Shown in pieces: positions 1 through 12,722 of a DNA stretch of 64,000 nucleotides (its first letter is position 1; each line of letters opens with the position of its first letter). The position numbers and the translations under genes were made by a program. The DNA comes from Candidatus Omnitrophota bacterium. Its GTDB lineage: Bacteria; Omnitrophota; Gorgyraeia; 2-01-FULL-45-10. Below the pieces are notes generated by a model, which made no database searches, was not told where the DNA came from, and saw nothing but the letters and a program-made list of their open reading frames with translations. Where the stretch lies: assembly GCA_041650935.1 (NCBI GenBank), contig JBAZKH010000005.1, forward strand, positions 65,574-129,573. The letters run 5' to 3'.

Positions 1-1316
1 TCTCTGTAAGAATCGAGCTTTGCTATACCGTCGTCCAGTTTAAAGCTCAAGCCATAGATAGGAGCTTTTTTATTTATGAAGTCTGTGAATCTTTTTACAC
101 TAAAATTAGCTTTATTAGCTACATAGTAATCGAAATCTTCCTTGATTAAGGCTATATTGAACATGCCCTTAATAAGCGACAGGTCTTTGTCTAAAGAATA
201 GATGGTTTTTTGGTCATCCGTTTTGGCAAGATTTTCTACGAGGGTTGTTTCGAGTTTCGCTATTTCCTTATACAGGACGAGCTTGTCTATAGCATCATAT
301 TTTTTTACATATTCGGAGTATTTTACAAGGTTAGGCAGTTTGCTAAAATCTACTCCCGTAAAGCGTGCCTTCTTAAGCAGATAACTGTAAAATTCTTCAT
401 TTGTAATATCGCCCTGCTTGAACTGCACGCTCTTTACGACAAGCTCTTCCAAATCTTTCGTAGAGAGCTTTTGGTTAAGCTTATCGATGAGAATGCTGCG
501 TTCAGTGTCGGCATTTTTGAAATTTATGGATTTTTCATCATTTAGGATAGTAAGGAGGCTGGATAGGTTCGGGTAGGTATTAATGTCGACTTTTTGTAAC
601 TCCGCTTTCTCTTTCAAGAATGCGATATAGGCCTTAAAATCTATCTTGCTGTCTTTATACGCCTTTATCTTTTCGTCAACTTCTTTGAGTTCTGGGGAAT
701 ACGCTTTTAGCTTAAGGTTCGTTATCGCTAGAGATAGTGTATTGAGATATTTATCGACTTCCTCCTTATATATAAGAGAGGATCGATAGGCGTTTAAGTT
801 CTCCCCATAGAGTTTTTCATCTTCTATGCCGAAAAGTTTTACTTTATCCGGGTTATTTATAGCAAAGAATTCAGGTCCGGATATCCGCCCTTCCTTTACG
901 AAATAGTCGGAAACCTTTTTTCTTAATTCGGGGTCTTTAATTTTAGTAAATATGGAAAGATCGTAATTACCCTTACCGCCTTCCAGTGATACTAAACCTA
1001 TATTATAGGTAGATACGAGATGTTTTATAATGGCTTCTGAGGCATGCTGGGCTGAATAATTACAATGGGCGTCCTGAATGTGGATGATAGTCTTGCCGTT
1101 AGAACCTTTGAACGTGTCTTTTATCTCACCGAAACGAAAAGGTATTGAAATGCCATTTATATCTAAAGGAGCGGTGCTTATATTGCCAGCTGATACCGCT
1201 GGATTTGTAGCGTTAGCGCCCCACGCAAGATCGTAAAACACCATGTTAGAGAAAAAAGCACATAGAGTAACAAAAGATATCAGCACACGATATAGTCTTT
1301 TCTCTTTTATATGCAT
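1..1316 (-). CDS. Hypothetical secreted protein. The N-terminus is in the window and the C-terminus runs off the window start. Signal-peptide-like N-terminus MHIKEKRLYRVLISFVTLCAFFSNMVFYDLAWGA.
   Basis: The reverse strand is open from an ATG at 1316-1314 to position 1 with no stop. It is AT-rich with coherent codon usage. The N-terminus is basic then hydrophobic and ends in a DLAWG motif shared with the 1641-aa protein. The ORF is absent from the track only because it lacks an in-window stop. Confidence 0.5.
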   Translation of the reverse strand, partial: MHIKEKRLYRVLISFVTLCAFFSNMVFYDLAWGANATNPAVSAGNISTAPLDINGISIPFRFGEIKDTFKGSNGKTIIHIQDAHCNYSAQHASEAIIKHLVSTYNIGLVSLEGGKGNYDLSIFTKIKDPELRKKVSDYFVKEGRISGPEFFAINNPDKVKLFGIEDEKLYGENLNAYRSSLIYKEEVDKYLNTLSLAITNLKLKAYSPELKEVDEKIKAYKDSKIDFKAYIAFLKEKAELQKVDINTYPNLSSLLTILNDEKSINFKNADTERSILIDKLNQKLSTKDLEELVVKSVQFKQGDITNEEFYSYLLKKARFTGVDFSKLPNLVKYSEYVKKYDAIDKLVLYKEIAKLETTLVENLAKTDDQKTIYSLDKDLSLIKGMFNIALIKEDFDYYVANKANFSVKRFTDFINKKAPIYGLSFKLDDGIAKLDSYR

Positions 1317-1575
1317 TTTTGTTTCCCCTTAAAATTTTTCATTGTCAGATATCGAGTTTGATGTATAAAAAAACCAAGCCGCCTTATCTTCTAGGCAGCT
1401 TGGCTATCTAGCGTAAAATACGTTCTCTAGACCGTCAGCTTTGCGCCCTCGCGTCTCCGCGAGTTTGCCTTTATTCTAGAATATTGTAATTTAAGCATAT
1501 CATACATTTATGTTAAGTCAAGAAAAAGTTACTGCCTTTTTTATCTCTAACATTGATTAGGCCAGTAAAAATAGA

Positions 1576-1669
1576 AAAGGCACTGGCTATATGCTAACCA
1601 ATGCCTCTTTTGACTTCTTACTAACCCTCTTACTTAGGTCTAACACCTCTATTTCGCACAACTCTTTGA
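1576..1669. repeat. Direct-repeat copy 1, about 95 bp, about 90% identical to 9866-9962. It includes a terminator-like hairpin.
   Basis: Manual alignment of atatgctaaccaatgcctcttttgacttcttactaaccctcttacttaggtctaacacctctatttcgcacaactctttga against the copy at 9882-9962. Confidence 0.7.
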
Positions 1670-1696
1670 GAACACTATCCTTAAAATAGTGTGAGT

Positions 1697-1721
1697 TTCG
1701 AATGGTGGTGAGGGTTTATTG
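1697..1721 (-). pseudogene. Degenerate 3'-end fragment of tRNA-Tyr (acceptor, T-arm remnant, CCA).
   Basis: tggtggtgagggtttattgcgaacc resembles the 3' end of the intact tRNA-Tyr at 9995-10020 (tggtggtgagggatggattcgaacc). Confidence 0.5.
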
Positions 1722-1816
1722 CGAACCAAACTCAATAATATTTTACCTTAACTCCATCAGTATAATATCTATTTCATCTATTGTAACATATTCAACTATT
1801 GGATATGTCCGATTTT

Positions 1817-2113
1817 TTAGGGATGCGGCGTAATTGCAAAAACAACGATTTCGCCCCTGGCTTTTCCATAATAAAAGAAGATGCGAAATGCTGCCGGAGT
1901 ATTCTGCTCGGCATACGCTTCAAAGACCTTTTCTCCGTTTAGACCACACAAAGAAGTATATGGATGCGTTTGTAATCCTGGATGCCGCGGATTGTCCGCT
2001 AGGAGTTTTAATGCTTTGGAAGCCGCCTTGAAACGTTTCTCTAAATGGGCGGAGCGTTTCAACTCTTTTAAGTTTTCTCTTGCTTCAGGAGTAAAACTAA
2101 GGAAGAAACTCAT
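1817..2113 (-). CDS. Putative type II toxin, RelE/ParE-like, 98 aa.
   Basis: Small basic protein. It overlaps the upstream AbrB-type antitoxin gene by 4 bp (ATGA), a typical TA operon arrangement. The motifs FTPEARENLKEL and RIFFYYG..GEIVVFAITPH are reminiscent of the ParE/RelE fold. Confidence 0.4.
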   Translation of the reverse strand: MSFFLSFTPEARENLKELKRSAHLEKRFKAASKALKLLADNPRHPGLQTHPYTSLCGLNGEKVFEAYAEQNTPAAFRIFFYYGKARGEIVVFAITPHP

Positions 2114-2451
2114 AAATCGTTTAAGAAACTTTCCAGATCATCGGCCTTTTCTATCTTGCCTTCTGCCGCCTCTTTTAACCCCCGTCGTATCTTGCCGATA
2201 ACTTCCGAGTTACGATATATCCACGCCTCGTTACTGGGAACCGATACGGCGGGCCGGAGTAATATATCCCCTTCTTTGCCGACAAATACCTGGTAAGAAT
2301 CAATCTTCATCTTACTCATTAAGAGTTTTTGCAACCTTCCCCCCAGCGTTATACGGTGCTTGGAATCGAGTGGCCGGGTATCTACGGGTATAAACACCTC
2401 CCGGATCTCAAAGGTTTGCTTTTTCTTTTGCGCGGCTTTTAATGTCTTCAT
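2110..2451 (-). CDS. AbrB/MazE (SpoVT-AbrB) family antitoxin-like protein, 113 aa.
   Basis: Swapped-hairpin AbrB-like motif DSKHRITLGGRLQKL...VFVGKEGDILLRP. It lies first in a two-gene operon with a small toxin-like ORF. Confidence 0.55.
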   Translation of the reverse strand: MKTLKAAQKKKQTFEIREVFIPVDTRPLDSKHRITLGGRLQKLLMSKMKIDSYQVFVGKEGDILLRPAVSVPSNEAWIYRNSEVIGKIRRGLKEAAEGKIEKADDLESFLNDL

Positions 2452-2559
2452 TATAATCCCTCTCTTTCTAGTAAAAGTATATCATACAGTGGGAATATTG
2501 TCAAGTGGGAAAGTGGGATTTTCTGGGCATAAACCACACATAGGCAAACACGAGTGGTT

Positions 2560-2592
2560 TATGGTGGTGAGAGATGGATTCCTCTTCAGCCG
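2560..2592 (-). pseudogene. Decayed tRNA 3'-end remnant.
   Basis: tggtggtgagagatggattcctcttcagccgcc matches the tRNA-Tyr 3' end with indels. Confidence 0.3.
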
Positions 2593-2751
2593 CCAGAGGC
2601 AGATCCAGAACTAGCCGAATCCACTATACAACAATTGCCCTACTTCGCTCTTCACCGCTCAGGTAGTGGTTGAGCTTCGTAGGGGCATTCTGCCTACATG
2701 TACAATTTCTGCGAAGCCCTACCTCAGCCTTACTCTGAAGGGCGCAGCAGA

Positions 2752-2776
2752 ATGGTGGTGAGGGTTCGAACCGAAC
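2752..2776 (-). pseudogene. tRNA 3'-end remnant (T-loop, acceptor, CCA).
   Basis: tggtggtgagggttcgaaccgaac has reverse complement GGTTCGAACCCTCACCACCA. Confidence 0.45.
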
Positions 2777-2863
2777 TTAACTCCTGCATATTTTACCATA
2801 ATTCCGACGATACACTAGCCATAAATTCAATGACTGAAAATGTGCGACAGTAGTAATAGCGAA

Positions 2864-4270
2864 TTAACCGTGGATCTCCCAATGCCCGCCTTTATCGGGA
2901 CCAATACGTTTAATAATGCCTTTTTCCTTTAGTTTTGACAAATGCTTTTCGATAGCTCTACTGGTTACGCCTAATAGCTGGGCAATCTGTTGCGCTGAGA
3001 TAGCGGGGTTTTCTTTAATTGCCGCAATAATCTTCTCCGAACTTTTCTCCGAACTTTTCTCCGAACTTATTTGAATTTGCTTATCCGGTTTGGGATTATG
3101 AAAAACTGTCACAAAACTGCCGCCAGCCTCTTCATAAGTTGGTTCGGGTAATCCCCACTCTTTGCACCACCGAATGATTTTACTTGTTCCTGAACCCACA
3201 TCCTCGGCGAATTTAATCCAGAAAAAGGCTTTGGCAATCAGAGGATTACGTGGAATCGAATCGTGCTTTCCTTTTAATTTTTCTATGGTAAGCGGCGGAG
3301 GTAAAAGTCCGGGATTCCAAACTTCCAGTCGATCGTCAAAAATCCTTACTTGGACTTTACCTGAACTGGCATAGTCTCGATGAGCCAAAGCGTTTGCCAG
3401 AGCTTCTCTTATGGCATCCTGTGGATAAAGCCATTTTTCCTGACGTTGGAGCTTCCCTGATTCTATCCATGCTTTCATTGGGATATGATCGTAGATAAAG
3501 CTTTCCGCTTTCTCAAGAAGCGTAATCGCGTCTCCGCCGATTGTTTTGAAATCAAGCATCGGTTTGGTTTCATCTACACCTTTGAACCGAATAGCTTTTA
3601 ATTCGGCTTGCAAAAAGAAGGATTGCGTGTCTTTTCCAAATAATAGAATGGCCGCATTGGTCAGCTTGCCGTTTTTTATTAACTTTAGCTTTCTCAAAAT
3701 ATCCGGCACCGGCGTCTCACGATCTATATTCAACCCTCTTTGTTCTTTGGCTTTTTTAACAAAGGTCAAAAGCTTTTCGTTACTGATATCTGTAATTTTT
3801 GCTTCCTTACAGATTTGTTCATCGAAATACAACCTGCCCTTATGCTTCTCAAGGATCAAACGCTCGTACTCATCCTTAGACATCTTAACCGTAGAGCGCC
3901 CCACGCGCTTATATGGCCGCCCAAAGGCAAGCACCAAATGATCGTGGGATTCTTTGACCTCGATAACGATCACGTCTTTATTGTCAATTTTCTTTACAAT
4001 TACATTGGGATGAAGCTTAGGGTCAGTATGCTGGGCTATTTGATTGACCAACTTCTCAATCGTACCTTTACCGATCTGAACACTATAAATCGTGCCTTCA
4101 GGGGAAACACCTATAAATAGCTGACCGCCTTCCGTATTCGCAAAAGCGGCTGCCGTCTCGATTATCTCATCGATCTCGGCTAAAGATTGTTTCCACTCAA
4201 TGATGGTGGATTCACCCATACCGATTATCTTTTTAATCTTCATACTCTTCTCCGAAGCAGAATATAGCAT
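2864..4270 (-). CDS. COG2865-type putative transcriptional regulator (Schlafen/AlbA_2 domain, HATPase_c_4 and C-terminal wHTH; RecG C-terminal-like).
   Basis: N-terminal AlbA_2-like stretch ESTIIEWKQSL. The conserved AIREALANALAHRDY motif and a C-terminal HTH (ISAQQIAQLLGVTSRAIEKHLSKLKEKGII) are also present. Confidence 0.8.
   Translation of the reverse strand: MLYSASEKSMKIKKIIGMGESTIIEWKQSLAEIDEIIETAAAFANTEGGQLFIGVSPEGTIYSVQIGKGTIEKLVNQIAQHTDPKLHPNVIVKKIDNKDVIVIEVKESHDHLVLAFGRPYKRVGRSTVKMSKDEYERLILEKHKGRLYFDEQICKEAKITDISNEKLLTFVKKAKEQRGLNIDRETPVPDILRKLKLIKNGKLTNAAILLFGKDTQSFFLQAELKAIRFKGVDETKPMLDFKTIGGDAITLLEKAESFIYDHIPMKAWIESGKLQRQEKWLYPQDAIREALANALAHRDYASSGKVQVRIFDDRLEVWNPGLLPPPLTIEKLKGKHDSIPRNPLIAKAFFWIKFAEDVGSGTSKIIRWCKEWGLPEPTYEEAGGSFVTVFHNPKPDKQIQISSEKSSEKSSEKIIAAIKENPAISAQQIAQLLGVTSRAIEKHLSKLKEKGIIKRIGPDKGGHWEIHG
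3040..3075. repeat. Three tandem copies of a 12-bp unit (cttttctccgaa) encoding SEKSSEKSSEK.
   Basis: Seen directly in the sequence, inside the COG2865 gene just before its HTH domain. Confidence 0.8.
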
Positions 4271-4315
4271 GAGAGCAGGAAAAATGGAAGGTAAAAGTTG
4301 AGGACATACTGAAAA

Positions 4316-7300
4316 TTACGCGGCGGTTTTGATATACTTTCGTATGATATGATTCACTTCCATGACATGGGCATAATCGACCTGTCTAATCGGCGGTAGG
4401 ATAAAGGCTATCGTCATTACGAATTCACCGATATCGGCTATACGCAGTTCTTCATCGGTTAATTTCCTATTCGCCAAGGATTCAAAAGCACTCCGCAAGC
4501 TTGCAATGCTATTTGTATGAAGTGCCCTCATTGCTCGCATTATGCCTTCGACCTGAACGGGTTCTTTGCACCGCTCAAAAGCCATGGCCTTTATGTCTGC
4601 TCCTAACTCTTTTGCCAGGTTGCTACCAAGTATCGCCCTGACTTCATCTGTACTTGGACAGGCAACACCGAATTCGAATTTATAATTTTTAAAATCGTTG
4701 CCATACTCGGCACGATAATAATCTAGCGTCTTCTGCATCTTAATACGTACCTTGTCCACAAAATTGCCCGGGCCATCCCCTGCTAAACGAACTATCTTCT
4801 CGCTATAGTCTCTACGCCTCATGTCAAATTCGACATTTGTCAGGATTGGCCTTTGCGCTTCTGGTATTATAGAATCTGTAATAATATCGCAACGTATCGT
4901 GTTATTAGCAATGACAGGGGTATTTTGAAGATTCTCGGCATGAATCTTGTCCGCATCGGCCTTATCCAAATCGGAATCGGCTTCTTCTTGCGGTGATAAA
5001 GTCCTGGCGGCGAGCTTTTCCCGCAATTTCGCTATGCCTTCGCCTTGTGTGCTTTGACGAACAGGGGCTACATCGGCCTGTCCCGTTTGCTGCCGGGTCG
5101 AAGATGTGGCTTCACTTTTTGCCGGCGTACCGCTACTGGATAAGACTTCGCTTAAACCCAAGGGTTGGTCGGATATGGTTATGGTTTTAGACAGCACACT
5201 ATTCGAGTCACGCAACTTCTGTGCTAATTGCCGTAATGCCCGAGAAGATTCTTCTGGTTGAGGTATGGCTGCGCGTAATTCGAGGCGGTGGGCATAGGCC
5301 TCTCTTCTTTCCACAGAGCATTGTCTTAACTCATCATCTAAATAGCGTAAAAACCATTTATCATCTTTTGGCTGATAGATCGCTATGTCAGACCTGCGAG
5401 ATAATATTTCCAGTGCACGCCAAAATATAATCATATCTTTATTCCATTCGGGAAAATATTGATAGAGGTCCTCACAACCCTTTGTAGGAGAAAGAAAGGA
5501 TTCTCTTAAGTCGCGAACTGGTCTTTTATTTATACTGGTTATATCATGCATATATACATCTGCAAGTCGCAAAACTTCTTCTTCTGGCAAAGCATATACC
5601 TCGTCTATTTCCTCGGTTGATATACAATCTTCGCCGGACAGAAATTTCCTTAACCAAACCAAGTAATCTTGAAGTTCTTGGGGTTCCCATAAAAATCCTT
5701 CATAGTAACATTTCACCCATGACGCATTTAATATAGCTTCTGTTATCTTTTTGCGCTTTGCGGTCTCGTCCCTATTTGCCGCTGCGCCACCGGATGCGGA
5801 CGCAACCGCATTAAACTCTTTTAGTGCCTCGCCGCTCATTGCTTCGGTAACGGCACGGCAGATCTCGGCATGGTACGGCATTGCGGTAAGACTTGCTATA
5901 AATTCTTTAAGAGTATATACGCTGGCTTCTATGCTTCCTCTTGCCAATCCTGCGATACGAACTATTTCTGCCCGTTGTTCATCTTTTTCGAGTTTCGAGG
6001 CTTCCCGAATCAGATTCTGAATAATATCTATTGGATATCCGCCACCTAAATCTTTTGGCAACGGCTTTAGTTCTTTGCCTTCCGCAACTAACAAAACCGG
6101 AGCGGATTCAATCGTCCTTATGATATTATTGACATACATCTCTAGCCCCGTCAAAGATACTCCTTTTACCTGTCCTCTTCTTATCGCATAACCATAATTA
6201 GCCGCTATATGTGGAAACAAATTCATAAATTCGTAATCACATGAACCGACGGAGGTAACTCTTGACAGATTATTTTTTTCTAATGTGCCACTATAAGGCT
6301 TCGCTGTAAAGAAACAATAATAGGCGGGTTGCCCGAAACCAACATTTTGTAGCAATAAATCGATAGCGTATCTTTTAGTACCGGTTCCGATGTAATCGTC
6401 CACAACGATGAATTTCTTCGATTTAATCTCATTGAAAGTTCGATTGTCAAGGCCCATAACCTGCCGTAGTTTTTCATTTTGAGCTGATGCAGTCAAGCCT
6501 CCTCCTAGCAATGCTCTCTTGTCATCGTGATTAACAAGATAGATTAGCGGCATATTTTTGTTGCCATAAAGATGTTTCCATGCTGTTTCCAAAAGCATCG
6601 TTGGAAGCACTGCGCTGTCGCCAAAGAGTAAAATTGTACCGAACCCATTATCGTGAATCATTCTCGCAATTTCAATCGACACCGTAGCTATAGTTTCCGC
6701 CTCCCGCATGTCTTTGGTGATATTTTGCTGGACAAGCGGAGTGCCGGACTTACAGCGATTTATGTTAAAATCCCTGCTTTCCCAGTGGCCTGCTGTCCAG
6801 AAAAATGTGAAAACATTGACATCTTTCGGTAGGACGGCTTCATGGCGACCTGCTGTATTCTCGATTAACGGAATCATTCGACAATTATTCCAATGACCAA
6901 AATCGTCTTTTATACCTGCCCATACAAATCCCGGCGCCCCTTTAGATGGCTCTCCTACGGTCACCCGCACTCTATCTTCGGGGCCTATATCTAATACCTT
7001 CCCGCTTTCGAATGTCCAGACAACATCTTTTCCTTCGAGTTGAGGTTGGCTCTCCAATGGAGTACCTTTAAATTCAGGATGCTCGCGAAGCTTACCGGTT
7101 AAAAAGACTAAGTCGTTCAATAATATCGATGTACCACCATGCTTAGTATTAAAGATACGCTGCTCCTTTGATGGTTTGCTATAAAACCCTTCTGTCATAT
7201 TACCGGACATCATTAGCCCTATCTCACTGTTTGCAAGATCCCGTCCAGCATTTACCGCTATAGGTATGCCAGGCATTCCTATAACATTACCGTCATTAAG

Positions 7301-9241
7301 TCGTTCATCATATCTGTCACCATAGAATGCGACTAAGGAGACCTTTGAATTTAAATGCTCAGCCAACCACACTAACGCACTGCCTTTTGTTCCGTAATTA
7401 TCTTCATGTATCAGTCTGTAACCCCGGGTATCTTCATATTCATAAATGCGTTTCTCTTTGAAGAATTTATCCCGAGCAGCTAATATCAAATAGATATGGC
7501 TCAGCAAATATGATTTATGCAGTTTGTGAAGTTTATTGGCAAGATGATCGAGCGCCCTCCAGTAAAATGTCTCTTTTGTCGCGAGAGTATCGAAAGCAAT
7601 ATAACCGCCTTCTTCAAGATAAGCTATGATAGCGTTTACAATAGGCTCGTTTTCTTTATCACTCATTAAGCTTGTAATAGATATCGTCGTCTCATCCATA
7701 TCGAGTCCTAACAGCGGGGCACGCTTATCACGGCTTAGAATATGGTTGAGTCTCTCTTCAAGTACCTTTATCCTATCATCTTTAGTAGCGCCGCTGGATG
7801 CGGATGAACGAGTCGCTTGCTGCGCATTTAATTCGGCATAGCTTATAGGAGGTTTCGGAATAGGCAATGGATTTTCATCCGATGGCGTATCTTCAGGCTG
7901 GTCAGGCTTATAATTGTGCCGTCCAGACGGTGGCTCAGCACCGGGTAGTTTCGGACCGGGTAAACGTTTTGCGTGGGCTTCACCTCTCGCCATTACGCCT
8001 GGATTTTGCGATGCGACTGGGGCGGAGCTATTAGCTCCGGTAAATAATTCTCCATTCTCTGCTGTAGCGAGAAGTTTTTCATATCGATCTATTATTGGCT
8101 TAAATGTTACACCTTTATATCTATGTTTTATCTGTTCAAAATCCGCGCCTCTTCTGGATGCGATAATATCTTCCAAGCAACCTAAGTCTCTGGCAAATTT
8201 CAATTCTTCTTCGATTATTTCTAGGCACGCATGATGAAAGACATATTCAAATTTCAAATCACATATTTCATTGTCATAACATAACAATTCCAAAAATTCA
8301 TGCAATACACCGCAAATCATTTGCCTATTCCCTGTACGTTCTCTCAATAGAGTAAACGCAAGTGGTGAATATATAATATATACACCGGGTCCCCATATCC
8401 CTAACTTTTTTAAATCGTCTCTCGTTTGGCCATCAGAGATCCATTCATCGTATACTTTGCGCGGGATGTTAATTACTCCGTCTCCGATATTAAAATATTT
8501 ATTTGCGATACCTAATAGCTCATAGTCCGGAATTAAAACCGTGCCTTCCACTTTTAGTTCACTGGCCATATCTTCTAAAAATTCTATCGGGTCGCTAAGA
8601 TATATCGATTTTTTTGCATTCATTAATTTGTGATATGTGTTCCAAACAAGATCGCGGACTTTGGAAAACTTTTCCTTATAATCTTCCTCTGTTTGTGTTT
8701 TGTCAGGATTAACAAACCACACCCCTTCAAGTCCGGGGCACGAGAGATGGGCTATGTCTGCATCCGTTTTGATCTCAAAATTTCTTAGCTCTTCCAGATC
8801 CTGTGGAGTAAAATCAGCATAATCTCTGAGAAGTAACGCTTTTACCTGTTTGCCTTCCTTCTTAAAATTAAATGTGGCGATTGCCCATTTTTTCCCACTA
8901 GTTAAGCTACCTTTTTCAATACTTGCACCTATCTCAACTTCGCCAGCAGGAAAACATGTCTTATTCAATCTTGCAATTTGACCTTCTCTCACGTCTCCAG
9001 CTATGAATAGATTGCGCAATTCAACCGCCGCATAAGACGCAGTAAAGCCTGTACGGAAATCCATGCCCCACTTATCGAAGAATGGCTTGGATCTTAATTG
9101 TGCCGCAAGGGTAGTAGTGTTAGAAGAAGTGTAGCCGGAGGAAGGTTGTGCCCACGCAAGATCATTGACCAGAAATGTACACACTATGGCTATCGTTATA
9201 GCTTTAAATAATATGCTATATCTATTTTTATATACAAACAT
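4316..9241 (-). CDS. Giant (1641 aa) secreted multidomain protein with a HAD-like phosphatase module and a type I phosphoribosyltransferase-like module.
   Basis: N-terminal signal peptide. A Pro-rich linker precedes the HAD motif I LGLDMDETTI and motif IV-like FYGDRYDERLNDGNV. The PRPP-binding-loop-like FIVVDDYIGTGTKRY is present. It is a long uninterrupted ORF in AT-rich DNA. Confidence 0.8.
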   Translation of the reverse strand: MFVYKNRYSILFKAITIAIVCTFLVNDLAWAQPSSGYTSSNTTTLAAQLRSKPFFDKWGMDFRTGFTASYAAVELRNLFIAGDVREGQIARLNKTCFPAGEVEIGASIEKGSLTSGKKWAIATFNFKKEGKQVKALLLRDYADFTPQDLEELRNFEIKTDADIAHLSCPGLEGVWFVNPDKTQTEEDYKEKFSKVRDLVWNTYHKLMNAKKSIYLSDPIEFLEDMASELKVEGTVLIPDYELLGIANKYFNIGDGVINIPRKVYDEWISDGQTRDDLKKLGIWGPGVYIIYSPLAFTLLRERTGNRQMICGVLHEFLELLCYDNEICDLKFEYVFHHACLEIIEEELKFARDLGCLEDIIASRRGADFEQIKHRYKGVTFKPIIDRYEKLLATAENGELFTGANSSAPVASQNPGVMARGEAHAKRLPGPKLPGAEPPSGRHNYKPDQPEDTPSDENPLPIPKPPISYAELNAQQATRSSASSGATKDDRIKVLEERLNHILSRDKRAPLLGLDMDETTISITSLMSDKENEPIVNAIIAYLEEGGYIAFDTLATKETFYWRALDHLANKLHKLHKSYLLSHIYLILAARDKFFKEKRIYEYEDTRGYRLIHEDNYGTKGSALVWLAEHLNSKVSLVAFYGDRYDERLNDGNVIGMPGIPIAVNAGRDLANSEIGLMMSGNMTEGFYSKPSKEQRIFNTKHGGTSILLNDLVFLTGKLREHPEFKGTPLESQPQLEGKDVVWTFESGKVLDIGPEDRVRVTVGEPSKGAPGFVWAGIKDDFGHWNNCRMIPLIENTAGRHEAVLPKDVNVFTFFWTAGHWESRDFNINRCKSGTPLVQQNITKDMREAETIATVSIEIARMIHDNGFGTILLFGDSAVLPTMLLETAWKHLYGNKNMPLIYLVNHDDKRALLGGGLTASAQNEKLRQVMGLDNRTFNEIKSKKFIVVDDYIGTGTKRYAIDLLLQNVGFGQPAYYCFFTAKPYSGTLEKNNLSRVTSVGSCDYEFMNLFPHIAANYGYAIRRGQVKGVSLTGLEMYVNNIIRTIESAPVLLVAEGKELKPLPKDLGGGYPIDIIQNLIREASKLEKDEQRAEIVRIAGLARGSIEASVYTLKEFIASLTAMPYHAEICRAVTEAMSGEALKEFNAVASASGGAAANRDETAKRKKITEAILNASWVKCYYEGFLWEPQELQDYLVWLRKFLSGEDCISTEEIDEVYALPEEEVLRLADVYMHDITSINKRPVRDLRESFLSPTKGCEDLYQYFPEWNKDMIIFWRALEILSRRSDIAIYQPKDDKWFLRYLDDELRQCSVERREAYAHRLELRAAIPQPEESSRALRQLAQKLRDSNSVLSKTITISDQPLGLSEVLSSSGTPAKSEATSSTRQQTGQADVAPVRQSTQGEGIAKLREKLAARTLSPQEEADSDLDKADADKIHAENLQNTPVIANNTIRCDIITDSIIPEAQRPILTNVEFDMRRRDYSEKIVRLAGDGPGNFVDKVRIKMQKTLDYYRAEYGNDFKNYKFEFGVACPSTDEVRAILGSNLAKELGADIKAMAFERCKEPVQVEGIMRAMRALHTNSIASLRSAFESLANRKLTDEELRIADIGEFVMTIAFILPPIRQVDYAHVMEVNHIIRKYIKTAA

Positions 9242-9337
9242 GGTAGAAAATTATACCATGAAATATGTTAAGTCAATAGAAAGATATCTACATTTTTGAA
9301 TTCCTAATGCTTTTGAATTATTCACTTCATCAGTGCA

Positions 9338-9775
9338 CTATTTATATAGCGCTTCATAGATAAGCGCGTCATTTTCGTGGGCGGCTTCCACTTGATCAAG
9401 GCTTTGCTCTTGTCTTTCCCTGGCAAGTTCCTTCTTTAGATAATCAATAATGAATCCGTCTATTCTTTTCCATACATAAGAGCTAAAACGGACGGGCTTG
9501 GGGTTACCATGCTTGTCTTTATATCGGAGGTTATAGGTTTGAATCTTATCGTACAAGATAAATACCATCTGAGAGAGAATGTCTTCGCTGAAACGATCAC
9601 GATAAATCGGGAATATTATCTTGTGAATTCGAAAAAGGACAAATCCTATATGCCGCAGGATAAGCTCATTGGCCTTGCCTTTATCACCCTTTTTTGCCTG
9701 GGCAATGAGGCGTCTTTCTTCCTCAAGAGAAAGCTTTTGATATTTAGGGATAGCCGTACGATAGGTTTCGAACAT
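9338..9775 (-). CDS. Sigma-70 region-2-only protein (sigma-factor-like, lacking regions 3 and 4).
   Basis: LSLEEERRLIAQAKKGDKGKANELILRHIGFVLFRIHK matches sigma-70 regions 1.2/2.1-2.2. FSSYVWKRIDGFIIDYLKK matches region 2.4. The protein is only 145 aa. It lies immediately upstream of the giant gene on the same strand. Confidence 0.55.
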   Translation of the reverse strand: MFETYRTAIPKYQKLSLEEERRLIAQAKKGDKGKANELILRHIGFVLFRIHKIIFPIYRDRFSEDILSQMVFILYDKIQTYNLRYKDKHGNPKPVRFSSYVWKRIDGFIIDYLKKELARERQEQSLDQVEAAHENDALIYEALYK

Positions 9776-9857
9776 GGCGGTATATTATACAGGCCAAATA
9801 CTCGAAACCAAATTAAAAATAATGAGATTCTTTGCTTGAAGACGGGCAATAAATTTT

Positions 9858-9903
9858 GGCGGCAAAAAAGAGGCATCGGTTATATGCTAACCAATGCCTC
9901 TTT
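9858..9903 (-). terminator. Rho-independent terminator-like hairpin plus T-run, downstream of tRNA-Tyr.
   Basis: On the minus strand, aaaagaggcattggttagcatataaccgatgcctctttt is followed by ttttttgcc. The stem is about 14 bp with one mismatch. Confidence 0.5.
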
Positions 9904-9962
9904 TGACTTCTTAGCAACCCTCTTACTTAGGTCTAAAACCACTATTTCGCACAAGTCTTTGA
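9866..9962. repeat. Direct-repeat copy 2 (partner of 1576-1669).
   Basis: Manual alignment. It lies immediately 3' of tRNA-Tyr. Confidence 0.7.
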
Positions 9963-9994
9963 TGTCACAATAATTAAAAATACTTGAGTAAAGT

Positions 9995-10080
9995 TGGTGG
10001 TGAGGGATGGATTCGAACCATCGAAGGCTTGCGCCGCCAGATTTACAGTCTGGTCCATTTGGCCGCTATGGTACCTCACC
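9995..10080 (-). tRNA. tRNA-Tyr (anticodon GTA), type II with a long variable arm.
   Basis: Reverse complement is GGTGAGGTACCATAGCGGCCAAATGGACCAGACTGTAAATCTGGCGGCGCAAGCCTTCGATGGTTCGAATCCATCCCTCACCACCA. Acceptor stem is GGTGAGG/CCTCACC. The anticodon loop is CTGTAAA. The T-loop is GGTTCGAATCC and CCA is encoded. Confidence 0.9.
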
Positions 10081-10202
10081 ATATTGTTGACTAAAACGGA
10101 GTTAGAATTTCAAATAACAAATTCCAAATGTCAAAAATTCAAACATGGAACTTATCCTACGAAGCCCTACAGTTATCTAAGCGCCTTAAGGGCAAAGTAG
10201 GA

Positions 10203-10252
10203 TGGAGCTAGCAGAGGGGATCGAACCCCCGACCTATGGTTTACAAAACCCC
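10203..10252 (-). pseudogene. 3' half of a split tRNA-Thr(TGT): anticodon loop and 3' stem, variable loop, T-arm, acceptor 3' strand and CCA.
   Basis: Reverse complement is GGGGTTTTGTAAACCATAGGTCGGGGGTTCGATCCCCTCTGCTAGCTCCA. No matching 5' acceptor or D-arm is adjacent. The matching 5' half lies at 11758-11795. Confidence 0.55.
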
Positions 10253-10360
10253 TGCTCCGCTAACCGTATTTGCAATTTTCTCGTCGGAAGACTGAAAACT
10301 ACCTACAACCCACCTCCGTTTGTGGCGCTAATCTGAAAAATATCATTACTTTAAGTAACC

Positions 10361-10705
10361 CTATGCAAATTGAACGCGCCTTTTGGGATGAATCAAGCGC
10401 TCAAGCCTGTGCCTAATAGTACTGTTAAGAGGAATGGCTTGCATTTTAACCGTATAGCCGATAAAAAGCAATACCTTTTCGAGGGTAGAAATACTGCTGA
10501 ATTCACCGTTTTCAATCTTCGAAATATGCTGCTGGGTTACCCCCACCTTATCGGCTAACTGTTTCTGGCTGAGTTTATTTTTAACCCGATATTCGATAAT
10601 CCGTTTTACGATCTTGAGTTTTTGTTCCTCAAGCTCATAAAGCTCCTTAAAATAAGGGTCTTTCAACTTTTCTTTTAAGTGCTCATCTACTTTTTGTAGT
10701 TTCAT
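10361..10705 (-). CDS. higA: XRE-family HTH antitoxin (HigA-like).
   Basis: HTH motif LSQKQLADKVGVTQQHISKIENGE. It lies directly downstream of a HigB/Gp49-like toxin gene. Confidence 0.7.
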   Translation of the reverse strand: MKLQKVDEHLKEKLKDPYFKELYELEEQKLKIVKRIIEYRVKNKLSQKQLADKVGVTQQHISKIENGEFSSISTLEKVLLFIGYTVKMQAIPLNSTIRHRLERLIHPKRRVQFA

Positions 10706-10719
10706 ATTAATCGTCTCCC

Positions 10720-11085
10720 TTATTGTCTACTTAAAAAATCGTTCCTTCTTTCGATGGCTATAATTATCTCATTTTTAGGAGTTTTCCGCGCCTTTTTTAT
10801 AAAGCCATTGGTAAATACTGCTTTATCTTCATGATAAAAGAAATACAAAACCCTGACCGCTCCTTCATGTCCTTTGAATCTCAACTCAAAGATGCTATCC
10901 CCAATATATTTGGCATGAGGAAATGGCAATCTATGACCAAATTCCTCCAATAATTCCTTAACAAAGAAAAACTTTCTTTGTGATTTAAAATCCAATGAAT
11001 CAACAAATTCTTTTACAGGCGATTTGCCTGATTCTGTAAGGTAATAATAAGTCGCTATTTTAGCCACTAACTCCGTACCCCTCAA
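10720..11085 (-). CDS. higB: RelE/ParE-superfamily toxin, HigB/Gp49-like (PF05973-type).
   Basis: IFELRFKGHEGAVRVLYFFYHEDKAVFTNGFIKKARKTPKNEIIIAIERR is typical of Gp49-like HigB toxins. Toxin-first order with an XRE antitoxin following. Confidence 0.7.
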   Translation of the reverse strand: MRGTELVAKIATYYYLTESGKSPVKEFVDSLDFKSQRKFFFVKELLEEFGHRLPFPHAKYIGDSIFELRFKGHEGAVRVLYFFYHEDKAVFTNGFIKKARKTPKNEIIIAIERRNDFLSRQ

Positions 11086-11146
11086 TATAAAGTATACAAC
11101 TAAATAGTTGTATTGTCAAGACTTATTAGCTTCAAGTACTAGCTGG

Positions 11147-11431
11147 TTAAAGTTGAAGCGTTTTTAAACTTTGTTCGATTAGATCTAAGTTTTTCATATA
11201 ATTGACATCATGTGCAATAAAATATGAAACTTCATAATATGTTGTATCAATTTTTAACAGAATGCACCTACTTTGATATTCCTGCTTTTCCCCTTTATGG
11301 ATAAAACTCATTTCATAAGCAGGATTTCCATTAAATGTAATTTTTCTTTCATGTAAAAGCTGTCCTTTTATGCCGCCGCCTTTTGTAGGTCCAAAATGAA
11401 AAATGCTGACGCAAAAAAATTGTAAATACAA
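11147..11431 (-). CDS. Hypothetical small protein (94 aa).
   Basis: ORF only. AT-rich and lies within the insert. Confidence 0.25.
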   Translation of the reverse strand: MYLQFFCVSIFHFGPTKGGGIKGQLLHERKITFNGNPAYEMSFIHKGEKQEYQSRCILLKIDTTYYEVSYFIAHDVNYMKNLDLIEQSLKTLQL

Positions 11432-11490
11432 TCATGCCTTTCCTTTTCATAATTCTTCTTTTCAGGCGCTCCTCTATATTCAGATTAACT

Positions 11491-11507
11491 AGAGCTGGGG
11501 AGAGGAC
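11491..11507 (-). repeat. 17-nt partial duplicate of the tRNA-Thr 3' end (gagctggggagaggact).
   Basis: Identical to 11529-11545 inside the intact tRNA-Thr and lies 21 nt away from it. Confidence 0.5.
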
Positions 11508-11525
11508 TCGGCCGACTTAAATAAT

Positions 11526-11601
11526 TGGAGCTGGGGAGAGGACTTGAACCTCCAACAGCGTGCTTACAAAGCACGAACTCTACCAGTTGAGTTACCCCAG
11601 C
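11526..11601 (-). tRNA. tRNA-Thr (anticodon TGT), intact.
   Basis: Reverse complement is GCTGGGGTAACTCAACTGGTAGAGTTCGTGCTTTGTAAGCACGCTGTTGGAGGTTCAAGTCCTCTCCCCAGCTCCA. Acceptor stem is GCTGGGG/CCCCAGC. Anticodon stem is CGTGC/GCACG with loop TTTGTAA. Confidence 0.85.
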
Positions 11602-11757
11602 CTAAATTTGTAGCGCTATTTGCTAACAAATAACCCTAAACGCTACCAAATCCGCTAAAAATCAAATTAAAAAAAATTGTCTTAACTTATTGCTACTATT
11701 CGTATTACGTTGACTTTAAATGGGTTACGAAACTACTCAAAAACTACCATAGCATTC

Positions 11758-11795
11758 TTACAAAACCATTGCTCTACCAGCTGAGCTATGCTAGC
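11758..11795 (-). pseudogene. 5' half of the split tRNA-Thr(TGT): acceptor 5' strand, D-arm, anticodon 5' stem and loop.
   Basis: Reverse complement is GCTAGCATAGCTCAGCTGGTAGAGCAATGGTTTTGTAA. GCTAGCA pairs 7/7 with TGCTAGC at 10206-10212. ATGGT pairs 5/5 with ACCAT at 10236-10240. Confidence 0.55.
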
Positions 11796-11858
11796 GCCAA
11801 CATTGTTGCGCATGTCTGGTGTCCCGAGACGCTATCTTCCAACTCCCGCGCCAAGAGA

Positions 11859-12722
11859 CTACCCTAATCTCTTTAACACTTCCGGCAGCTTATCTAAAAG
11901 ATCCGTTGCGATAAGACCCAGCGACCCCTTATCTCTTACTGCCAGGTCCCCCGCCAGGCCGTGAAAGTATGTACCGAGCGCCGCCGCGTCAAAAGGCTCC
12001 ACGCCCTGCGCGACAAATGCGGCTATAATACCTGTGAGCAGATCGCCGACGCCGCCGGACGCCATCCCGGGATTACCGGTCCTGTTTATATAAAATTCAC
12101 CGCGCGGCCCGGCAACAACGGTATTATGTCCTTTCAAAACCAGGACGATATTATACTCACGCGCCGTTTCAAGCGCAACATCTTTTCGGAACCTCTCTAT
12201 CTTCGCTATGCTCTCCCCCGTCAGTCTTGCCAATTCTCCCGGATGAGGAGTGAGCACAAGCGGTCCCCTGGCTTTTTTAAGTTCTCCGGCATAGCCGTCG
12301 AAAGCATTTATCCCGTCGGCGTCGAGGACTATAGGCCTATCCAATTTTGCAACAAGTTTCCTGACTAGCCGCGCCGTTTGGTTATTCCGCGAAAGCCCCG
12401 GGCCGATCGCAAAAGAATTACACCTGCCGGCAAAACGCAAAAGGCCGCCTTCGGCATCTATCCCCAGCGAACGCTCTTTCGTCTCAGGGCAGGACTTCAC
12501 CATGACCTCGGTAAGTTTTGCCGCCATTATGCAATGGAGGCTCTCGGGCACCGCCAGCGTCACGAGTCCGCCGCCTGACCTCACTGCCGCCTGACTCGAT
12601 AAGTACGCCGCGCCCGTATAACCGGCGGACCCGGCAACAACCAGGACGTGCCCAAAATCCGCTTTACTGGAATCAAGCGGCCTAATCGGAAATTTCTTTA
12701 TAAGCTTACCTATCGATATCAT
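11859..12722 (-). CDS. nnrD: ADP-dependent (S)-NAD(P)H-hydrate dehydratase (YjeF C-terminal domain).
   Basis: Carbohydrate-kinase-like YjeF_C fold. Motifs include GPGLS, VLDADGIN and GNPGMASGGVGDLLTG. Confidence 0.8.
   Translation of the reverse strand: MISIGKLIKKFPIRPLDSSKADFGHVLVVAGSAGYTGAAYLSSQAAVRSGGGLVTLAVPESLHCIMAAKLTEVMVKSCPETKERSLGIDAEGGLLRFAGRCNSFAIGPGLSRNNQTARLVRKLVAKLDRPIVLDADGINAFDGYAGELKKARGPLVLTPHPGELARLTGESIAKIERFRKDVALETAREYNIVLVLKGHNTVVAGPRGEFYINRTGNPGMASGGVGDLLTGIIAAFVAQGVEPFDAAALGTYFHGLAGDLAVRDKGSLGLIATDLLDKLPEVLKRLG

Follow-up and report, generated by a model that had tools for sequence, protein, structure and literature searches.

The window analysed here is a 64,000-nt stretch of the genome of a Candidatus Omnitrophota bacterium (contig JBAZKH010000005.1), in the first 12 kb of which an intact tRNA-Tyr gene is followed by foreign gene modules and by partial copies of the tRNA's own 3' end. 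From 12 to 64 kb the window carries core metabolism (Wood-Ljungdahl, fatty-acid synthesis, RecG, ribosomal proteins), with no recombinase among these genes. GC content and tetranucleotide profile shift at nnrD, the first core gene, which adjoins tRNA-Thr in about 40 relatives and is the right-hand limit of the accessory region. Positions 1-11850 have a GC content of 0.409, against at least 0.492 in core windows of equal size, and a tetranucleotide distance to the core of 0.364, against a maximum of 0.106 among core windows; a preliminary description of this DNA had proposed the comparison, and both values fall outside the core range. All sub-blocks of 1-11850 are atypical in composition, and everything to the left of nnrD is compositionally foreign. 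Part of a metagenome assembly (ENA ERZ27247363, contig k141_1980946, 112 kb) is identical to 12,451 window bases, and the source contig in reversed orientation (L081; L081 position p = window 12452 - p) extends past the window start by a further 7.9 kb. With NnrD as query, the best matches in genomes and metagenomes have 60-72% amino acid identity and come from metagenome-assembled genomes (MAGs) and metagenome contigs of Candidatus Omnitrophota; the closest relative has an NnrD identity of only 72%. Loci and contigs used for comparison carry L numbers.

The tRNA-Tyr gene, on which ARAGORN and Rfam agree with the preliminary description (Table 1), is identical in sequence to the tRNA-Tyr of L008 and L011. 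Its last bases recur downstream. The 12-mer CCCTCACCACCA from the tRNA 3' end, with at most one mismatch, is found at four sites in the 64 kb (1703, 2562, 2753 and 9995, the last in the tRNA itself), all on the (-) strand; shuffled sequences yield 0.06 expected sites, and none of 100 shuffles reaches four. The same-orientation copies previously noted at about 1697, 2560 and 2752 are thereby confirmed, and are named F1, F2 and F3 here. F2 is of the host type and, read by eye, reaches as far as TCTGGCGGC in the anticodon stem and carries an internal deletion. A fifth fragment, F0, which keeps only 9 of the 12 core bases, lies in L081, where it is followed by a degenerate copy of the unit U described below (together L081 19617-19700) and then by a PAS histidine kinase gene. 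Since histidine kinases are a recurrent gene type between tRNA-Tyr and tRNA-Gly in relatives (L095, L006), the far end of the array is placed at F0, about 17.2 kb from tRNA-Tyr, giving an array of about 17 kb. The PAS kinase itself (a 949-aa gene) has no detectable homologue in the L095 and L006 intervals, and the homologue search gave only short PAS proteins.

F1, F3 and F0 belong to a sequence family that also includes four L165 fragments and a single fragment of L177, all sharing GAACCCTCACCACCA; F1 and F3 read GAACCCTCACCACCA or AAACCCTCACCACCA. These element-type fragments lack the T-stem strand TCCAT, which every intact tRNA-Tyr has, and no intact tRNA-Tyr gene takes the TCCAT-less form. 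Each fragment is located just past the last stop codon of a short module, so that they terminate modules in three genomes: F3 sits 85 nt past the stop of a 468-aa gene, the 45 nt upstream of it resemble those of F1 (71%) and of the L165 fragment f3 (79.5%), and F1 is 90% identical over 31 nt to the fragment at the module end in L177. A sequence-only covariance model of the fragments (R1), run on 45 loci, added a single site (L165 4550-4573); its remaining matches were true tRNA-Tyr genes. A hairpin in the fragments was considered as a selected structure and rejected, as the T-loop palindrome GGTTC/GAACC together with the TCCAT deletion explains it trivially.

Directly 3' of tRNA-Tyr lies a unit, U, of which the window has two copies, U_B beside the intact tRNA and U_A beside F1. 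Positions 9868-10020 align with 1575-1728 over 155 columns (82% identity, E 2e-34), a repeat composed of the tRNA tail and U with its terminator, and over the 112 nt that align without gaps (9868-9979 vs 1575-1686) identity reaches 87%. What had been described as a repeat of about 95 bp with roughly 90% identity is therefore real and does include the terminator hairpin, but it is 112-155 nt long and a mosaic rather than uniform. Nor does it bound the block, contrary to what had been supposed: low GC persists past the distal repeat and through the 7.9 kb beyond the window start, so the two large repeats do not delimit the foreign region, and the accessory DNA continues for about 7.2 kb past the window start to F0. 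A strong hairpin with a T run ends both U copies, and in folds of the tRNA-sense strand the differences between the arms still pair through G-U.

The mosaic emerges from comparison with L092, a relative in which tRNA-Tyr and U are followed by mpsC, pckG and purC. Over the first 45 nt after the tRNA, U_B is 89% identical to L092 and 61% to U_A; over the next 69 nt the values are 75% and 94%, and over the last 26 nt 65% and 46%. The 3' end and first 45 nt of flank of the intact tRNA-Tyr are of the native type, and the tRNA-Tyr/U_B junction appears to be the native one, with U_A and F1 of another origin. Because the tRNA-proximal part of U_B is native and the 94% tract is internal to U, the last joint was probably made inside U, by homologous recombination or at a site there; the pattern would fit a crossover or gene-conversion tract within U and not a crossover in the tRNA tail. 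The tract that the two copies share inside U is recent, and its exact runs of 21 and 33 nt make homologous exchange possible. Logan contig L082, which is independent, has the F1-U_A junction as well.

In a translated motif search, sequence resembling U turned up directly 3' of tRNA-Tyr or its fragment in L002, L004, L006, L008, L092, L094, L096 and L165, with a conserved core ..ELC(E/D)(I/V)EVLD(L/F).. Pairwise differences fall on codon positions 1/2/3 as 149/165/394, as in coding sequence. The 3' part varies in sequence and ends in a terminator hairpin where inspected (both window copies and L006). U has no conserved ATG, with an ATG/ATT codon aligned in five sequences, and its reading frame stays open upstream into the tRNA, in three different registers. 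The U peptides gave no match in Pfam, and 21- to 29-nt DNA patterns from U gave 0 matches in IMG/VR and 0 in JGI metagenomes. U is a conserved feature native to the 3' flank of tRNA-Tyr, coding-like in its sequence, and certainly not a random terminator.

Table 1 Features of the tRNA-Tyr locus and of compared loci. Positions refer to the window unless a locus is named.
Feature	Position	Strand	Support or remark
Intact tRNA-Tyr(GTA), array anchor	9995..10080	(-)	ARAGORN; Rfam tRNA 59.9 bits
F3, element-type tRNA-Tyr 3'-end copy (..GTTCGGTTCGAACCCTCACCACCA)	2751..2794	(-)	model R1 39.6 bits
F2, host-type tRNA-Tyr 3'-end copy	2562..2602	(-)	19/20 nt match to resident tRNA tail
F1, element-type tRNA-Tyr 3'-end copy (..GGTTCGCAATAAACCCTCACCACCA)	1701..1744	(-)	R1 38.5 bits
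F0, fifth fragment, decayed element type	L081 19617-19659		~7.2 kb past window start
Element-type fragments elsewhere	L165 664, 1627, 3536, 4550; L177 3226		
U_B, unit 3' of tRNA-Tyr, coding-like motif (..DLCEIVVLDLSK..)	9868..9979	(-)	hairpin 9866-9902
U_A, second U copy	1575..1686	(-)	terminator hairpin 1575-1611
2434-aa secreted-protein gene, 5' part	1..1316	(-)	gene call L081 11136-18440; GC 0.37
TA-like cassette: promoter and two ORFs overlapping by 4 nt	1814..2522	(-)	
Toxin candidate, 98 aa	1817-2113	(-)	
AbrB-like antitoxin candidate, 113 aa	2110-2451	(-)	
468-aa SLFN_AlbA_2 + HATPase_c_4 + winged-HTH protein (COG2865-like)	2864..4270	(-)	Pfam E 2.5e-21, 1.7e-22; phrog_12156 E 2e-81
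1641-aa protein, signal-peptide-like N-terminus	4316..9241	(-)	no Pfam family
Sigma-70-region-2-like protein orf145, 145 aa	9338..9775	(-)	weak NCBIfam sigma matches E 3.5e-6; phrog_351 sigma factor E 1e-8
Displaced 3' half of ancestral tRNA-Thr(TGT)	10203..10250	(-)	Rfam tRNA partial 25.5 bits
HigA (HTH_3)	10361-10705	(-)	PF01381 E 2.1e-13
HigB (Gp49)	10720-11085	(-)	PF05973 E 3.8e-22
Substitute tRNA-Thr(TGT), other sequence type (GCTGGGG..)	11526..11601	(-)	ARAGORN; Rfam 63.5 bits
Orphan 5' half of ancestral tRNA-Thr(TGT), ending in anticodon loop	11758..11795	(-)	
nnrD (NAD(P)H-hydrate dehydratase)	11859..12722	(-)	Pfam Carb_kinase E 5e-58; first core gene
Short tRNA 3'-end copies in relatives	L086 5182-5355; L088 11045-11073, 11818-11837; L096 9305-9328; L014 12343-12366; L024 9080-9100		

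Between these landmarks lie the cargo modules, and domain searches confirmed those named in the preliminary description: a toxin-antitoxin (TA)-like pair, a Schlafen-like regulator, a sigma-like protein and a 1641-aa secreted protein (Table 1). The TA-like cassette recurs over its whole span from promoter to stop codon (1814-2522) in three different settings, with DNA identities of 90% in L165, 84% in L166, where recO and cobalamin genes flank it, and 73% in L168, where its neighbours are a PIF1 helicase and a DinB-like polymerase; the homology stops sharply at promoter and stop codon. The antitoxin has matches in more than 120 protein clusters at 74-96% identity, mostly from Omnitrophota and mostly on contigs shorter than 2 kb, against at most 72% for relatives by a core gene (NnrD). 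The nucleotidyltransferase pair with its fragment is 71% identical in L165, and the 44-nt hairpin at its start 98%; the order of modules differs between the array of the window contig and that of L165. The promoter/5' end and the 3' end of the 1641-aa gene are 77-85% identical at the DNA level to the ends of a 1213-aa gene in L165. In L171, another Omnitrophota MAG, a homologue of the 468-aa protein is split (326 + 73 aa) in a defence island.

Several smaller observations concern the cargo. The L171 defence island (type I restriction-modification, SIR2, GmrSD, GIY-YIG; noted for L171 4111-5332) also holds the same TA-like cassette. At the 3' end of the 468-aa gene, a 12-nt tandem repeat (TCTCCGAACTTT three times, 3026-3065) encodes a repeated peptide near the helix-turn-helix domain. 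The 2434-aa gene runs past the window start within the low-GC array. A segmental duplication with paralogous giant genes was rejected, the 1641-aa and 2434-aa proteins giving a best E of 0.067; their N-terminal signal regions look alike by eye, the proteins being unrelated, and a 34-nt promoter stretch containing TTGACTTAACATA is common to both genes (1509-1542 vs 9264-9297, 76%). Between U_A and the start of the 2434-aa gene lies a c-di-GMP-I-GGC riboswitch-like aptamer (1390-1478, (-) strand, E 5e-10), whose 51.9 bits fall short of the gathering score (59); a genuine riboswitch here would mean that cyclic di-GMP controls this giant protein. Look-ups of exact proteins, made to find strain variants, gave nothing beyond the same contig and two Logan contigs, both short. 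For orf145 the exact protein is recorded in 2 long assembly blocks and no Logan contig, and exact NnrD and antitoxin in 3 long blocks and Logan; the fewer records for orf145 may hint that some populations are without the tRNA-proximal module, or variable in it.

A second tRNA gene next door, which the preliminary description did not mention, has also been invaded. The tRNA-Thr(TGT) that follows nnrD is split in its anticodon loop, and 11758-11795 joined to 10203-10240 rebuilds a tRNA-Thr(TGT) 100% identical to those of L004, L005 and L009, with a 10-bp repeat, GGTTTTGTAA (10241-10250), at both junctions. The 1.5-kb insert contains a substitute tRNA-Thr, a 23-nt copy of its tail, a 94-aa ORF, HigB and HigA; it does not regenerate its target, whose place is taken by the separate, complete tRNA-Thr. 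HigB and HigA are adjacent and on the same strand, as is typical of the type II toxin-antitoxin pair that they are predicted to form. A group I intron was rejected as the cause of the split, since Rfam finds no intron in 10251-11757 and the insert is a tRNA and three ORFs. The same orphan 5' half, spacer and substitute tRNA-Thr are present in L097, so the tRNA-Thr event is old or recurrent. In L101, where nnrD is 58% identical, HigBA (85% DNA identity, 86-92% amino acid identity to that of the window) belongs to a 1.8-kb island that has an intact tRNA-Thr on one side and, on the other, a 3' half-copy whose first bases are those of the anticodon loop; this is the classical arrangement. Both tRNA-Thr types occur directly after nnrD in different relatives, which suggests that insertions of this type may be able to exchange the tRNA gene itself. 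Taken together with the distribution of the TA-like pair, the HigBA matches indicate that both cassettes are clearly distributed horizontally.

Two further observations were made at this tRNA. The 23-nt copy of the substitute tRNA-Thr 3' end (11486-11508 vs 11522-11544, 91%) begins 17 nt past the tRNA, and L101 has the same feature, a 21-nt tRNA-Thr tail copy 129 nt downstream; the copy could be an attachment (att) scar or a small tandem duplication. Logan contig L084 (SRR8542065, an independent, short contig with the same nnrD) ends at window 11768, 1 nt before the GGTTTTGTAA repeat, a graph branch that may reflect the intact tRNA of another species or cells without the insert.

In about 40 Omnitrophota loci the gene order is nnrD, tRNA-Thr(TGT), tRNA-Tyr, tRNA-Gly(TCC), tRNA-Thr(GGT), and the interval between tRNA-Tyr and tRNA-Gly is the variable part of this cluster. 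It is compact in L017 and L088, where the Thr, Tyr and Gly genes fit inside 0.9 kb. Other relatives have gaps of 0.4-7 kb with contents unrelated between loci: a radical SAM enzyme, hydrolases, a histidine kinase with response regulators, or phosphoenolpyruvate carboxykinase with purC. The 1641-aa, 468-aa and 2434-aa genes of the window occur in 0 of about 170 fetched loci, the nearest of them at only 72% NnrD identity. Relatives without the block, which had been named as a check on its accessory nature, are thus at hand as compact or differently filled intervals. Numerous MAG contigs end a few hundred bases or less from these tRNAs.

Relatives also show other modifications of these tRNA genes. 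In two of them tRNA-Tyr(GTA) is split by a group I intron in the anticodon loop (L089 11543-11806 and L096 8850-9100; RF00028, 75 and 86 bits for the pair), the 5' exon ending in U and the intron in G; because of the interruption ARAGORN missed both genes. Copies of 20-29 nt of the 3' ends of tRNA-Thr, tRNA-Tyr and tRNA-Gly stand about 55-270 nt downstream of the parent tRNA in several relatives (Table 1), separated from it by only short GC-rich filler. These would be mini-insertions or scars of lost islands.

A similar array is that of L165, which ends at tRNA-Gly and has the same TA-like and nucleotidyltransferase cassettes in another order. An ORF cut by the contig end there matches phrog_95 (E 2e-10, profile positions 395-580), and its last codons overlap the fragment f1. 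The serine integrase of Bxb1 matches phrog_95 as well (457 bits), so the L165 ORF would be the C-terminal part of a large serine recombinase.

In our view the block is probably, if by no means surely, the half nearer the tRNA of an accretion array that formed at tRNA-Tyr, has since decayed and has lost its recombinases. The ancestral order would have been nnrD, tRNA-Thr, tRNA-Tyr, U with its terminator and a downstream gene. Foreign modules would have inserted serially at the 3' end of the tRNA-Tyr transcription unit, bringing an attachment sequence that mimicked the tRNA-Tyr tail and in some cases also U. Each integration would have kept a working tRNA-Tyr and displaced the older modules outward, leaving an att-like tail copy at the distal module end: F3, F2 and F1 in the window and F0 about 7.2 kb beyond. 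With the recombinase genes later lost from the genome, the array would now be immobile, its survivors being mostly addictive or defence-type cargo (the TA-like pair, the Schlafen/AlbA regulator, the nucleotidyltransferase pair) and two giant secreted proteins. Most recently, a rearrangement would have joined the two U copies through the tract of about 70 nt in U, by homologous recombination or at a site there. A parallel event at tRNA-Thr would have placed the 1.5-kb insert in the anticodon loop, bringing the substitute tRNA-Thr and HigBA, with no rebuilding of the target. Serial integration at tRNA-Tyr, as originally proposed, thus finds support in the foreign modules, the same-strand tails and the fragments shared between genomes, but not at the last joint, which was probably made in U. 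The data establish the layout of the array, its composition, its absence from the relatives compared, horizontal spread for two of the cassettes and the family of element-type fragments; that integration was site-specific, the sequence of insertions, the kind of recombinase and present immobility are inferred.

A number of results weigh against this interpretation. No ORF of window 1-12000 or of L081 up to 20342 contains a recombinase domain, and the integrase expected just beyond the window start is not in the 7.9 kb there. Neither tblastn with the L165 recombinase fragment nor a six-frame reading of 2540-2860 revealed an integrase pseudogene in the spaces between the tail copies, and no integrase or excisionase was found downstream of tRNA-Thr/Tyr in about 15 relatives. 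The putative large serine recombinase is the only lead to a recombinase, a single instance in another genome, and its fragment has no detectable relatives in the protein collection and no match in Pfam or the PDB. For the identity tract inside U, homologous recombination is no worse an explanation than a crossover in the tRNA core. In its non-tRNA contexts the TA-like cassette has no att-like fragment. The sigma-like gene orf145, taken for island cargo in the preliminary description, is indeed present, but it is 70.7% identical at the amino acid level to the ORF directly after tRNA-Thr in L097; the two are syntenic, their divergence equals that of core genes, and orf145 may be vertically inherited. 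Finally, no relative above 72% NnrD identity was found to display an empty site.

Several of these points would be accounted for if no recombinase had been involved. The tail of tRNA-Tyr and U with its terminator would have been duplicated locally by unequal or homologous recombination, much as in the repeated distal part of the E. coli tyrT operon, and genes would have accumulated later by illegitimate or homologous recombination with related strains, the tail copies being by-products that never served as attachment sites. U is native and conserved 3' of tRNA-Tyr in relatives, the 94% tract with its exact runs of 21 and 33 nt would suffice for RecA-type exchange, no integrase was found in the window and the 7.9 kb beyond it, orf145 looks vertically inherited, and the 3'-end copies 100-260 nt downstream of tRNAs in L086, L088, L089, L096 and L014 leave no room for an island. 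We nevertheless regard this explanation as unlikely, if one to be taken seriously. The family of F1, F3 and F0 is distinct from the resident tRNA and common to module ends in L165 and L177, the modules in common with L165 stand there in another order, one of the L165 fragments is directly adjoined by what remains of a serine recombinase, and the horizontal spread of the TA-like pair and HigBA is clear.

The opposite departure from the decayed array is a living system, in which the tail sites are functional and a recombinase supplied in trans captures, shuffles and excises single-operon cassettes one by one beside tRNA-Tyr; its logic would be that of an integron, with tRNA-derived sites and possibly a large serine recombinase. 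The fragments do lie 10-90 nt past the last stop codon of modules of one to three genes, the TA-like and nucleotidyltransferase pairs stand in different order in the window contig and L165, homology ends sharply at promoter and stop codon, the cargo is rich in TA modules, as is that of chromosomal integrons, and the contigs of many MAGs break at the tRNA-Tyr locus. Against this, no recombinase was found at the locus, the fragments are unevenly decayed (F0 with 9 of 12 core bases, F2 of another type), the TA-like cassette is found elsewhere without such a site, the pattern is confined to three genomes, and the fragment palindrome follows trivially from a T-loop with TCCAT deleted; a living system is distinctly unlikely. 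Its most specific form seems to us quite improbable: that Omnitrophota possess a tRNA-Tyr-anchored cassette-capture system with tRNA-derived sites and a trans-acting large serine recombinase, the U mini-ORF being part of the machinery. If it were true, single-operon cassettes (TA pairs, defence genes, giant secreted proteins) would each carry a site of about 45 nt from the T-arm and acceptor strand of tRNA-Tyr, and their insertion, reshuffling and excision would be the trans-acting work of a large serine recombinase whose own gene ends in a site of this kind. The U mini-ORF might then be, for example, a recombinase tail restored on excision, and the whole would resemble an integron platform, with sites taken from a tRNA and another class of recombinase.

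An assembly artefact, with low-GC contigs of unrelated origin wrongly attached to the tRNA cluster through the repeats, is barely credible: the source is a k141 contig of a metagenome assembly, the contigs of relatives often end at the locus and L084 stops at the split tRNA-Thr junction, but the same gene neighbourhood is recorded in more than one long contig, L082 independently spans the TA-like pair, F1 and U_A with identical sequence, L097 independently has the orphan 5' half, spacer and substitute tRNA-Thr, and repeats only 82-94% identical make collapse of a k=141 graph unlikely.

Omnitrophota are uncultured, and our literature search found no account of how they acquire accessory genes. 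Their conserved Thr-Tyr-Gly tRNA cluster is a recurrent landing pad, cassettes of the TA type are in wide circulation within the phylum, and at this locus its assemblies break systematically. Capture of foreign genes marked by tRNA tails is a familiar bacterial route, and the novelty is in the local twists. The replaced tRNA and the coding-like unit at tRNA-Tyr offer leads on the evolution of tRNA-targeting elements and on the exchange of tRNA genes, to which are added the tRNA-tail sites that end single-operon modules and the one lead to an enzyme, which points to a serine and not a tyrosine recombinase. Should the array be no more than a fossil, it is the remnant of an ordinary genomic island.

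Among known systems, chromosomal integrons are arrays of short, promoter-poor cassettes, many of them TA pairs, each with a recombination site and in variable order. The array resembles them in its short single-operon cassettes, each followed by a site-like sequence, and in an order that differs between genomes. It differs in that the sites seen are derivatives of the tRNA-Tyr tail, not attC hairpins, and the cassettes have their own promoters; IntI, attI and Pc were not found, and there is no tyrosine recombinase in the window or L081. Cis-mobilizable elements (CIMEs), which accompany integrative and conjugative elements (ICEs) in streptococci, lack an integrase, are flanked by att sites, stack at one site and could in principle be mobilised by the recombinase of a related element. 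Here too integrase-less modules bounded by att-type repeats are stacked at one chromosomal site, in a different phylum, with decayed sites and hypothetical mobilisation. A complete cognate autonomous element was not found; the element-type fragments are common to L165, where one abuts the phrog_95 ORF. PMC5704250 and PMC7563491 review the concept of CIMEs and site-specific accretion in streptococcal ICEs.

In islands at tRNA genes, new elements push older ones inward and leave partial tRNAs and broken integrases (10.1101/2020.12.28.424599; PMC4383910). As in Islander islands and the tycheposons of Prochlorococcus, an intact tRNA stands at one end (tRNA-Tyr at 9995-10080) with displaced same-strand fragments inward (1703, 2562 and 2753, and the fifth in L081), newer elements would have displaced older ones, there are degenerate remnants and an atypical composition, and relatives, the nearest at 72% NnrD identity, lack the block or have the site differently filled. 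Both crossover classes of Islander are represented, T-stem/acceptor at tRNA-Tyr and anticodon-loop at tRNA-Thr (PMC4383910, 10.1101/2020.12.28.424599). Unlike those islands, each of which is expected to hold its integrase, the array has none, whole or fragmentary, in about 20 kb, covering the window part and the 7.9 kb beyond; its modules are tiny, of one to three genes, the long repeat takes in the native downstream unit with the identity tract outside the tRNA, the sole recombinase lead is of the serine and not the tyrosine type, and the tRNA-Thr target has been replaced by a whole second tRNA gene.

At the tyrT locus of E. coli the repeats are 178 bp long, and each includes the 19 nt that end the tRNA. 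There, as here, tRNA-Tyr is followed by a repeated unit with tRNA 3'-end copies and a region of a tiny ORF or small RNA (tyrT-tyrV, rtT RNA and tpr in that operon; 10.1101/2024.07.17.603846). The E. coli units are head-to-tail and gene-free, whereas the copies here are 0.2-8.3 kb apart with foreign genes between them; the two share no sequence similarity, and Rfam gave no RtT match at E up to 10. In phage HP1, a long identity between attP and attB restores the 3' part of a tRNA operon. The array differs from such sites in its mosaic identity and in having no phage genes, and is like them in that the duplicated segment passes the end of the tRNA to include the downstream operon sequence and terminator, so that the unit stays complete.

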